Shown in pieces: positions 28,180 to 57,126 of a stretch of 64,000 bases of DNA (positions are counted from its first letter, which is position 1; each line of letters begins with the position of its first letter). Source of the stretch: Escherichia coli. GTDB lineage: Bacteria; Pseudomonadota; Gammaproteobacteria; Enterobacterales; Enterobacteriaceae. Position numbers and translations under genes: made by a program. The DNA is taken from the NCBI RefSeq assembly GCF_003334315.1, contig NZ_QOWR01000015.1; one strand, given 5' to 3'. The notes below the pieces were generated by a model. The model made no database searches. It saw only the letters and a list, made by a program, of their open reading frames with translations, and had not been told where the DNA came from.

Positions 28180-28365
28180 TTTATCGCATCAGGCATTTAT
28201 CGCCTGATGCGACGCTGGCGCGTCTTATCATGTCTGGGATTTGATGCCTTTATCACAACAGGGACGAGGCCCGTAGATCGGATAAGGCGTTCACGCCGAA
28301 TCCGGCAGTTGTGCTCCGATGCCTGATGCGACGCTGGCGCGTCTTATCAGGCCTACAAAGGCATA
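28180..28365. repeat. REP/BIME cluster (three REP units)
   Basis: Two copies of GCCTGATGCGACGCTGGCGCGTCTTATCA (28202-28229 and 28321-28348) flank an inverted REP (CGGATAAGGCGTTCACGCCGAATCCGGC). Confidence 0.7.
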
Positions 28366-54690: not shown

Positions 54691-54828
54691 GTTGGATATT
54701 CCGAATTAAGTATCTGATGCAGAGACTATATCGCGGGATTGTTATTAGCGGAAATTGATAATATTAATTGGCAATCAGAAAAACTAATAAGAGAGAGGCC
54801 AGAGAGTATTATCTGGCCTCAGTGTTGA

Positions 54829-55689
<861 letters not shown>

Positions 55690-55831
55690 TCAATATTCCT
55701 TTTCAACTGACTCAAAATGGAGAAATACACTCCGCCGCCTTATGACGGGCAGTCTGACAAGGGTAAACAATAAAGCATAATTTTGCCAAATAGATCACAG
55801 ATTTCTCATCTGAATCACCTTGCTTTTGGCG

Positions 55832-55853
55832 AAAAAATCCCCGCAGAGCGGGG
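55832..55853 (-). terminator. Distal copy of the fbaA intrinsic terminator
   Basis: Minus-strand hairpin CCCCGC-UCU-GCGGGG followed by UUUUUU. Confidence 0.5.
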
Positions 55854-55879
55854 CTCAGACAGATATCAATGTGCGCTTT

Positions 55880-55985
55880 GTCATGCCGGATGCGGCGTGA
55901 ACGCCTTATCCGGCCTACAAAAACCTGCAAATTCAATATATTGCAGGATACGTGTAGGCCTGATAAGCGTAGCGCATCAGGCAAT
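55880..55985. repeat. REP pair (BIME) downstream of fbaA
   Basis: GCCGGATGCGGCGTGAACGCCTTATCCGGCCTAC and inverted GTAGGCCTGATAAGCGTAGCGCATCAGGC. Confidence 0.7.
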
Positions 55986-55998
55986 TTTGCTTTTGGCG

Positions 55999-56022
55999 AA
56001 AAAAAGACCCGCAGAGCGGGCC
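55999..56022 (-). terminator. Proximal fbaA intrinsic terminator
   Basis: Minus-strand hairpin CCCGC-UCU-GCGGG followed by a 7-U run, about 25 nt after the fbaA stop. Confidence 0.55.
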
Positions 56023-56046
56023 TTGAGATAAGCAGAAAGGAATGAC

Positions 56047-57126
56047 TTACAGAACGTCGATCGCGTTCAGTTCCTGGAATGCTTTTTCCAGACGAGCGAT
56101 CATCGAAGTCTGACCGGCACGCAGCCATACGCGCGGATCGTAGTATTTCTTGTTCGGCTGATCTTCGCCTTTCGGGTTACCCAGCTGACCCTGCAGATAA
56201 GCTTCGTTCGCTTTGTAGTAGTTCAGAACGCCTTCCCAGGTTGCCCATTGGGTATCGGTATCGATGTTCATTTTTACTACGCCGTAGCTTACGGAGTCTT
56301 TGATTTCCTGAGCAGTAGAACCGGAACCACCGTGGAATACGAAGTTCAGGCTGTTGTGCGGCAGGTTGTGTTTCTTAGAAACATATTCCTGAGAATCACG
56401 CAGGATGGTCGGAGTCAGAACCACGTTACCCGGCTTGTAAACACCGTGTACGTTACCGAAGGACGCTGCGATGGTGAAACGCGGGCTGATTTTGCTCAGC
56501 TCGGTGTATGCGTAATCAACGTCTTCCGGCTGGGTGTACAGTGCAGAAGCGTCCATGTGGCTGTTGTCCACGCCGTCTTCTTCACCACCGGTACAACCCA
56601 GTTCGATTTCCAGAGTCATGCCGATTTTGGACATGCGCTCCAGGTATTTAGAGCAGATTTCGATGTTCTCTTGCAGAGATTCTTCAGACAGGTCGATCAT
56701 GTGAGAAGAGAACAGCGGCTTGCCGGTAGCAGCGAAGTGTTTTTCACCCGCGTCCAGCAGACCGTCGATCCACGGCAGCAGTTTCTTCGCGCAGTGGTCA
56801 GTGTGCAGGATAACCGGAACACCATAATGTTCAGCCATCTGGTGAACGTGATGCGCACCAGAGATCGCGCCCAGGATAGCAGCACCCTGCGGAACGTCAG
56901 ATTTCACGCCTTTACCAGCGATAAAAGAAGCACCACCGTTGGAGAACTGAACGATAACCGGCGCTTTAACTTTAGCAGCGGTTTCCAGTACGGCGTTGAT
57001 GGAGTCAGTACCGACGCAGTTTACTGCTGGCAGTGCGAAGTTGTTTTCTTTTGCTACCTGGAAAACTTTCTGTACGTCATCACCAGTGATTACGCCAGGT
57101 TTTACGAAATCAAAAATCTTAGACAT
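56047..57126 (-). CDS. fbaA: Fructose-bisphosphate aldolase, class II
   Basis: ORF 56047-57210 trimmed to ATG at 57126 (MSKIFDFVKPGVITGDD). Confidence 0.95.
   Translation of the reverse strand: MSKIFDFVKPGVITGDDVQKVFQVAKENNFALPAVNCVGTDSINAVLETAAKVKAPVIVQFSNGGASFIAGKGVKSDVPQGAAILGAISGAHHVHQMAEHYGVPVILHTDHCAKKLLPWIDGLLDAGEKHFAATGKPLFSSHMIDLSEESLQENIEICSKYLERMSKIGMTLEIELGCTGGEEDGVDNSHMDASALYTQPEDVDYAYTELSKISPRFTIAASFGNVHGVYKPGNVVLTPTILRDSQEYVSKKHNLPHNSLNFVFHGGSGSTAQEIKDSVSYGVVKMNIDTDTQWATWEGVLNYYKANEAYLQGQLGNPKGEDQPNKKYYDPRVWLRAGQTSMIARLEKAFQELNAIDVL

Follow-up and report, generated by a model that had tools for sequence, protein, structure and literature searches.

The spacer between mscS and fbaA of Escherichia coli holds a BIME-1 repeat element bracketed by two copies of the fbaA terminator. 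We consider it most probable, at roughly 0.8, that a BIME-1 (z1, L, y and B) inserted at the foot of the fbaA terminator in the ancestor of E. coli and E. albertii, duplicating its target. The insertion, together with the duplication, has been inherited vertically since before these two species split, and the length polymorphism now seen within E. coli reflects repeated loss of this old insertion and not a recent gain.

Organization of the mscS–fbaA spacer

The window, the 64,000-nucleotide stretch of DNA that was analysed, carries the argO–mscS–fbaA–pgk segment of E. coli, as identified from the list of open reading frames and from the RefSeq annotation of identical and near-identical records. 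This region matches several complete E. coli genomes at 100% identity and K-12 and BL21(DE3)-type records at 99.5%, and MG1655 coordinates are obtained by adding 3,014,118 to the window coordinates. The features of the spacer and its two flanking genes are as follows.

54829–55689, minus strand: mscS coding sequence, the downstream gene (ORF list; RefSeq annotation of identical or near-identical E. coli records)
55690–56046: mscS–fbaA spacer, 357 nt between two minus-strand genes
55820–55855, minus strand: terminator copy 1, distal from fbaA, on the mscS side (direct repeat, terminator scan, fold); tail 55820–55831, U-run 55832–55837, hairpin 55839–55853
55854–55884, minus strand: B motif of BIME-1, the outer flanking motif, 31 nt, reading ATGACAAAGCGCACATTGATATCTGTCTGAG on the minus strand
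55885–55918: y-type REP (palindromic unit) of BIME-1, with CTAC at 55915–55918 (inverted repeats, fold, partial Rfam naRNA4)
55919–55953: L linker of BIME-1, 35 nt, with a small hairpin of its own; conserved core TGCAATATATTGAATTTGCA on the minus strand at 55926–55945
55954–55982: z1-type REP, inverted relative to the y REP, with GTAG at 55954–55957 (inverted repeats, fold)
55983–55986, minus strand: AAUU between the z1 REP and terminator copy 2
55987–56024, minus strand: terminator copy 2, proximal to fbaA, the main termination site (direct repeat, terminator scan, fold, Term-seq); tail 55987–55998, U-run 55999–56005, hairpin 56004–56024
56047–57126, minus strand: fbaA coding sequence, the upstream gene and owner of the duplicated terminator (ORF list, annotation)

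In the sense of fbaA (minus strand, 5′ to 3′) the order is copy 2, AAUU, z1 REP, L linker, y REP, the 31-nt segment and copy 1. A sequence-only reading of this DNA had pointed to two near-identical segments here; both strings are indeed present, although copy 1 starts at 55820, one base away from where it had been placed. Copy 1 reads TTGCTTTTGGCGAAAAAATCCCCGCAGAGCGGGGCT (55820–55855) and copy 2 reads TTGCTTTTGGCGAAAAAAAGACCCGCAGAGCGGGCC(TT) (55987–56024), with a start-to-start distance of 167/168 nt. Their first 18 nt are identical and the remainder differs by one indel and three substitutions. A GC-rich hairpin with a T-run is a generic shape common to intrinsic terminators, so that the similarity might be put down to coincidental convergence; this explanation is already refuted by the 18/18 identity of the tails, the identical loops, a deletion allele that is exactly one repeat period shorter (see below), and a local flank alignment score of 52 at fbaA, against a mean of 14.1 and a maximum of 22 in 420 non-cognate BIME-1 flank pairs.

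Both copies scored as intrinsic terminators on the minus strand in the terminator scan, in agreement with the sequence-only reading. Copy 2 folds as AAGGCCCGC-UCU-GCGGGUCUU followed by U7 (9-bp stem, 3-nt loop, −14.3 kcal/mol) and copy 1 as CCCCGC-UCU-GCGGGG followed by A and U6 (6-bp all-GC stem, 3-nt loop, −11.8 kcal/mol). In each, the GC-rich stem-loop lies directly before the U-run, and 3′ ends fall within the U-run in vivo. These ends are the published Term-seq values for K-12 MG1655 (Adams et al. 2021, Supplementary file 1; PMC7815308). A 3′ end classified as 'primary fbaA' was reported at 3070119 in LB at OD 0.4 (160,555 reads) and in M63 at OD 0.4 (120,854 reads), and at 3070118 in LB at OD 2.0 (54,607 reads) (PMC7815308). 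These positions correspond to 56001 and 56000 of the window, the fifth and sixth U of copy 2, where an end was thus called in all three conditions. An additional 3′ end of class orphan was reported at 3069950 in LB at OD 2.0 (44,902 reads) (PMC7815308); it corresponds to position 55832, the last U of copy 1, and was called in only one of the three conditions, that of late growth (LB OD 2.0). Since Term-seq ends lie in the U-runs of copy 1 and copy 2, both modules yield RNA ends, and 3′-end mapping, which had been proposed as a check, found K-12 ends at both hairpins and not at one. The distal end at copy 1 could arise in part from 3′ exonucleolytic trimming back to a stable hairpin. Most fbaA transcripts would stop at the proximal copy 2, and those that read through would contain the BIME-1 stem-loops and stop at the distal copy 1, the outcome being a two-stage insulation of mscS from the very highly expressed fbaA.

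The same table lists 3′ ends at two neighbouring hairpins. The hairpin at 54795–54820, after mscS, has a poor U-run (UCUCUUAUUA), yet a 'primary' 3′ end was called at 3068909, position 54791 of the window. At the hairpin in the pgk–fbaA spacer (57313–57332), the 3′ end at 3071427 (position 57309) is consistent with partial termination within the pgk–fbaA operon.

BIME-1 has been defined as a single-copy unit in which y and z1 are joined by a long conserved L linker (Ton-Hoang et al. 2012, PMC3333891). The element between the two terminators has this structure: y and z1 are in inverted orientation with CTAC and GTAG at their feet, confirming the two inverted REPs (55885–55918 and 55954–55982, with a 35-nt linker) that had been seen between the copies. 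The y REP folds at −20.9 kcal/mol (z −4.3) and the z1 REP at −13.2 kcal/mol, and partial matches to Rfam naRNA4 (REP) were obtained. The long linker is recognized by the Rfam family ES036/CssrF with 47.3 bits, against a gathering score of 37.6, and its core TGCAATATATTGAATTTGCA is an exact 20-mer shared with 21 other BIME-1 sites in metagenome contigs. By eye, ATTCAATATATTG within the linker fits the IHF consensus WATCAANNNNTTR with one mismatch and may represent an IHF site. The B motif at fbaA aligns to the consensus ATGAACAAAGCGCACTTTGTCAACAATCTGA that adjoins the y REP at 20 other BIME-1 sites, and the B segment is single-copy per genome at megablast stringency; we had at one point regarded an inner segment of 28 nt as unique sequence, a reading that was dropped when alignment with other BIME-1 sites identified it as a diverged B motif. 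At the other end, the A motif of BIME-1 is absent or reduced to its last 3–5 nt and is replaced by 23 nt of U-run and tail. The left end of the element is missing at fbaA, where the direct repeat abuts the z1 REP. As described for BIME-1, the whole unit is present or absent among natural isolates.

Two further observations concern repeats of this kind. ES036 (the CssrF 'sRNA') matches the BIME-1 L linker at full length (55919–55961 of the window) and above its gathering score, so the family seems to model the linker of a multi-locus repeat element and not one sRNA gene. A second REP cluster in the window, at 28185–28360 and 3′ of a plus-strand gene, has GCCTGATGCGACGCTGGCGCGTCTTATCA repeated in direct orientation at a distance of 119 nt, enclosing an inverted y-type unit; it may be BIME-2-like or atypical, and no duplicated flanking hairpin was seen at this cluster.

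An old insertion, repeatedly lost

We compared FbaA-encoding loci from one genome per species (FbaA protein identity 72–99% across loci L005–L084); among the loci listed, E. albertii is the only other Escherichia species, and E. fergusonii, E. marmotae and Salmonella are not among them. Among the species listed, one terminator and no BIME were found in two Citrobacter species, Kluyvera, Enterobacter cloacae, two Pluralibacter species, Phytobacter, Superficieibacter and Mangrovibacter. In these seven genera the single terminator has a homologous U-run and tail, followed by the conserved mscS upstream region, and copy 1 of E. coli is contiguous with this native mscS-side flank conserved in the outgroups. 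The E. albertii spacer has the structure of the window, with copy 2, z1–L–y, the B motif and copy 1. It differs from that of E. coli at 7% of spacer positions, and mscS differs at 12.7% of positions, whereas E. coli alleles differ from one another at 0.5–1.6% of the spacer; given this divergence, the duplicated structure of E. albertii is not the product of recent transfer. Taken together, the absence of the BIME from seven genera and the duplication in E. albertii place insertion and duplication before the split of E. coli and E. albertii. These results show that the single terminator is the ancestral state and that the duplication is tied to the BIME; none of the genomes sampled had two terminator copies without a BIME.

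The sequence TGTGATCTATTTGGCA, located just 3′ of the fbaA terminator and upstream of mscS (55775–55800, minus strand), is conserved in E. coli, Citrobacter, Enterobacter and Pluralibacter. To the eye it looks like a half-site of CRP type together with a −35-like TTGGCA; a simple promoter scan returned nothing on the minus strand.

Comparison of strains, which had been suggested as a way to look for presence or absence of the unit, revealed a 167-bp length polymorphism within E. coli. The inner segment is present in 3,771 of 5,426 complete E. coli genomes; the frequency of the short allele, about 30%, is an estimate obtained by subtracting 3,771 from 5,426, and in two spread samples 12 of 39 and 19 of 60 rows were short. 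The short form lacks exactly 167 bp of the spacer, including the BIME and one terminator; the terminator that is left is composite: the hairpin is that of copy 2 and the tail that of copy 1. A SNP lies 7 nt left of the repeat, at position 55813; three alternative bases are found there, and each of them occurs in both forms.

A at 55813: long in the window and K-12; short in TW10690
T at 55813: long in A30; short in PD23, O2:H6 and ETEC4068
C at 55813 (the E. albertii state): long in SMS-3-5 and cap22a; short in AZ161 and PEC011

Over 1,094 flank positions, only 3 differences separate the short allele of TW10690 from the long sequence of the window, as against 14–22 from the other five short alleles. 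Because long and short forms occur on three haplotypes, and the same insertion cannot credibly have happened three times over, the short form has arisen more than once by precise deletion from one repeat to the other, the crossover lying in the A/T-run. The argument rests on the TW10690 flanks and the three-state SNP at 55813. We had also considered a GAC/ATC dinucleotide difference shared beside the fbaA stop as evidence for recurrent deletion, and dropped it, as the wider flanks of PD23 group with other short alleles. At this place (56044–56045) GA and AT (the latter found in E. albertii) both occur with long and short alleles on unrelated flanking haplotypes, which suggests either that this place has mutated repeatedly or that tracts of conversion were very short.

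In its arrangement the short allele cannot be told from the outgroups, and it combines the least-diverged halves of the two copies, as would be expected if it were ancestral in E. coli and the long allele had entered or spread by recombination. We regard such a gain as very improbable: the homologous long structure is found in E. albertii at normal interspecies divergence, the two forms on each of three local haplotypes would call for three identical insertions, and TW10690 again pairs a short allele with flanks close to those of the long window sequence. The copy-2 tail differs from the copy-1 tail in SMS-3-5, A30, cap22a and E. albertii, and the 18/18 identity is therefore due to later gene conversion, showing that conversion equalised the tails in the lineage of the window strain and K-12.

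Stem-loop duplication at other BIME-1 sites

We scanned metagenome contigs with the exact L-linker 20-mer TGCAATATATTGAATTTGCA and obtained 102 usable copies from 24 genomic sites, 21 of which were BIME-1. An anchored alignment gave the consensus of the element: an A motif (T)GAGACTGATGACAAACGCAAAAYT, followed by z1, L and y, and then the B motif ATGAACAAAGCGCACTTTGTCAACAATCTGA. The outer 15 nt of A and B are mutual inverted repeats. The consensus ends GAGACTGATGACAAA and TTTGTCAACAATCTG, complementary at 12 of 15 positions by our own count, were found at most of the 21 sites, so that terminal inverted repeats are present at most sites, the fbaA site being without its left end.

Scores of cognate flanks aligned in direct orientation were 25–52 at six of the 21 sites, all above the non-cognate maximum of 22 (420 pairs). 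Besides fbaA, the five sites scored 35, 30, 30, 29 and 25, and two more scored 21 and 18. A clear flanking repeat is thus present at only 6–8 of the 21 sites sampled; some others have a hairpin on one side only. Where present, the flanking repeats start exactly outside A and B, and each is a GC stem-loop specific to its locus. Perfect GC hairpins adjoin 20 of 42 element ends, as compared with 3 of 42 control windows placed 100 nt further out.

Seven comparisons of filled and empty sites, including fbaA–mscS, gave the same result: one stem-loop in the empty allele, and one on each side of the element in the filled allele. Empty alleles of the six other sites came from complete E. coli genomes, and the duplicated sequences were as follows.

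metE–ysgA: CGGGTGGTAAYRCCACCCG, 19–20 nt
rutG–ymdF: CACCGCCGGTWACCCCGGCGG, 21 nt (1,734 genomes cover at least 80% of the filled query)
yqjG–yqjF: AAACGAGGAGCTTCCYCCTCGTTTT, about 25 nt
srmB–yfiE: AATGCCGGGTTTAAKCCCGGCATT, 24 nt (2,525 genomes cover at least 80% of the filled query)
yacH–lpdA: AGCGGC-loop-GCCGCT, 19 nt
mog–satP: TCCCCC-loop-GGGGGA, 17–21 nt

A direct repeat on both sides of the element and a single copy in the empty site, the signature of a target duplication, were therefore found at fbaA–mscS and at six further sites. The insertion of a unit with defined inverted ends is thereby shown to go with duplication of a whole target palindrome, and the proposal of the sequence-only reading that a REP insertion was accompanied by local duplication of the fbaA terminator was borne out by single terminators in the outgroups, the double arrangement in E. 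albertii and the same signature at six sites. The duplication has no fixed length: it corresponds to the palindrome ± 1–4 nt at the six sites (17–26 nt) and to 36–37 nt at fbaA, so that lengths range from 17 to 37 nt and follow the target palindrome.

At the six other sites, the A or B motif has taken the place of the U-run after the upstream hairpin copy. The fbaA site differs in that the A motif is missing and the duplication includes the U-run and probably a 12-nt tail; it is because the duplication extends through the U-run that both fbaA copies are able to terminate. These findings bear on the possibility that tandem terminators were selected first, to insulate mscS from fbaA, and that the BIME-1 landed between them later. 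Such an origin could account for the hairpin and U-run kept in both copies in E. coli and E. albertii, and for 3′ ends at both copies in vivo. We nevertheless judge it very improbable, even more so than the gain of the long allele, since a genome with two copies but no BIME was not found among those sampled, six unrelated BIME-1 sites are flanked by duplications of the same kind, and about 30% of E. coli genomes do with one copy; the upstream copy at other sites usually loses its U-run, so that no adaptive second terminator can be invoked there. Tandem termination is a consequence of the insertion and not the cause of the duplication. The earlier suggestion of tandem terminators insulating mscS accordingly held as far as both hairpins give 3′ ends, whereas insulation is a by-product of the insertion and not its reason.

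Two of the sites showed additional variation. The BIME-1 site at chbG–katE (L109 / L208) is polymorphic, and many genomes match its katE side only; the short allele examined (ZH48) was ruled out as a clean empty site, as it holds an unrelated stretch of about 50 nt that includes a different hairpin. In E. coli N96 (NZ_CM169999.1 652830–653627, H179), yqjG–yqjF spans 798 bp, as compared with about 440 bp in the empty and 620 bp in the filled allele (L197); the same terminator may here have received a larger insertion or two of them.

Mode of insertion and relation to known elements

The footprint can be explained by a mechanism in which the target palindrome would fold out into a hairpin or cruciform, one strand being broken at one foot and the opposite strand at the other, with a stagger equal to the length of the palindrome. 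An element with the inverted termini NAGAYTGNTGAC ... GTCAACAATCTG would be joined between the breaks, and repair synthesis would then leave a full copy of the stem-loop on each side. With breaks at the feet of the extruded target and subsequent fill-in, the length of the duplication would be set by the structure of the target. We infer the staggered cleavage from the footprint only. At fbaA, the target duplicated in this way would be the whole terminator stem-loop with its U-run and probably also a 12-nt tail behind it, so that the element is flanked by two copies. The 167-bp unit (BIME-1 and one terminator copy) has since been lost repeatedly by recombination between the repeats, with crossover in the T/A-run.

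The original duplication may have been shorter. The ancestral copy-2 tail (CGCCAGAAGAAAAATT in E. albertii) fills the same length as the A motif and, by eye, matches the A-motif consensus at 10–11 of 16 positions and the copy-1 tail likewise at 10–11 of 16. Because the tail is equally near to both, the duplication at fbaA may originally have comprised the hairpin and U-run only, the A motif having been remodelled later.

TnpA(REP)/RAYT, a single-strand, hairpin-dependent, C|T-cleaving transposase, would be a candidate enzyme. TnpA(REP) cleaves single-stranded DNA only, needs the REP hairpin, and cuts C|T at a distance on either side; its published activity is in vitro cleavage at C|T only. It is because of this specificity that we name it as a candidate, both consensus ends of the element containing C|T (GAGAC|TG and AATC|TG). 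Against the proposed mode of insertion, IS200/IS605-type Y1 transposition, the closest biochemistry, makes no duplication (PMC2817692), and the length here is not fixed (17–37 nt), unlike that of classical transposase duplications.

The variable length (17–37 nt) would also be expected from a replication error, in which a strand stalled at the terminator hairpin would switch by microhomology to a BIME-1 and return upstream, so that the terminator is copied twice. Target and element are both strong hairpins able to stall polymerases, and at fbaA the left junction lies within A-motif-like sequence (CAAAAGCAA as compared with CAAACGCAA), which suggests microhomology. On the other hand, the ends of the element are sharply defined and inverted at nearly all sites, as expected from recognition of termini and not from random switching, and at six sites the duplication closely matches the extent of the palindrome. 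To our knowledge there is no demonstrated case of a template switch that copied from a distant locus; we consider this explanation unlikely, though a more serious contender than the other alternatives discussed above. As a broader proposal, BIME-1, and perhaps enterobacterial REPINs generally, would integrate specifically at the feet of terminator stem-loops and duplicate the entire target palindrome; we advance this generalization tentatively, with somewhat less than even confidence.

Although REP and BIME sequences are the most abundant repeats of E. coli and have been on record for some forty years, papers of 2011, 2021 and 2026 describe the mechanism by which they spread as not established. 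For BIME-1, location at gene ends, IHF binding and presence or absence among isolates are known (PMC3333891, PMC1187871, PMC2817692), the absent state being termed 'excision' or 'presence/absence' with no footprint given. The fbaA unit resembles BIME-1 in its inverted y REP, L linker and z1 REP, its B motif, its extragenic position at the 3′ end of a transcription unit, and its presence or absence among strains as reported (PMC3333891, PMC1187871); it differs in that the A motif is missing or replaced. The literature searched, which did not cover Bachellier et al. 1997 (Genetics 145:551), where a prior description is possible, contains no mention of a duplicated terminator or stem-loop flanking BIME-1, and a general insertion footprint of BIME-1 appears to be undescribed so far.

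Two inverted REPs with GTAG acting as one replicative unit are also characteristic of REPINs, which are mobilised by RAYT/TnpA(REP), single-strand Y1 HUH transposases related to IS200/IS605; REPINs are inherited vertically over long periods, duplicate very rarely, and have been seen to excise in population sequencing (PMC3116915). No target duplication has been reported for REPINs, whereas here a direct repeat of 17–37 nt equals the target palindrome, and the mobile unit reaches past the REP pair to the inverted A and B termini. MITEs such as ERIC/IRU and Correia elements are likewise small, non-autonomous and palindromic, with terminal inverted repeats, flanking direct repeats, and filled and empty sites (PMC3184786). 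Their direct repeats are short and fixed by the parent transposase, whereas those described here are variable and follow the target stem-loop. No parent IS with BIME-1 termini is known. Finally, fbaA resembles known tandem terminators in having two hairpin and U-run modules in series after a very abundant mRNA, both with 3′ ends, but here the second module arose as a by-product of an insertion, the two are set 167 nt apart by a repeat element, and about 30% of strains do without the second.

The fbaA locus itself is ordinary, being made of known element types and dispensable in that same fraction of strains. A stem-loop-sized footprint at seven sites with matched empty alleles, however, makes the question of spread concrete and testable, in the form of a proposal with a hairpin as target, breaks at both feet of that hairpin, an element with defined inverted ends, and possible loss by recombination between the copies. 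If true, integration at the feet of a stem-loop would represent a way of inserting that has been described for no family of transposons, and targeting of stem-loops would explain both the location of these repeats at the 3′ ends of genes and their precise loss. Each BIME-1 insertion rewires a 3′ UTR, usually leaving the element between a U-less hairpin and the real terminator; fbaA is the exception, in that insertion made two working terminators.

The duplicated hairpins at srmB–yfiE (L097), rutG–ymdF (L096) and yacH–lpdA (L087) have diverged mostly in their loops or by paired changes that keep the stem. At srmB–yfiE, GCCGGG/CCCGGC has changed to GCCAGG/CCTGGT, and at yacH–lpdA the stems of the two copies are identical while 5 of 7 loop positions have changed. 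Because the divergence is mostly confined in this way, the pattern suggests that the U-less copy may still be constrained as a hairpin.
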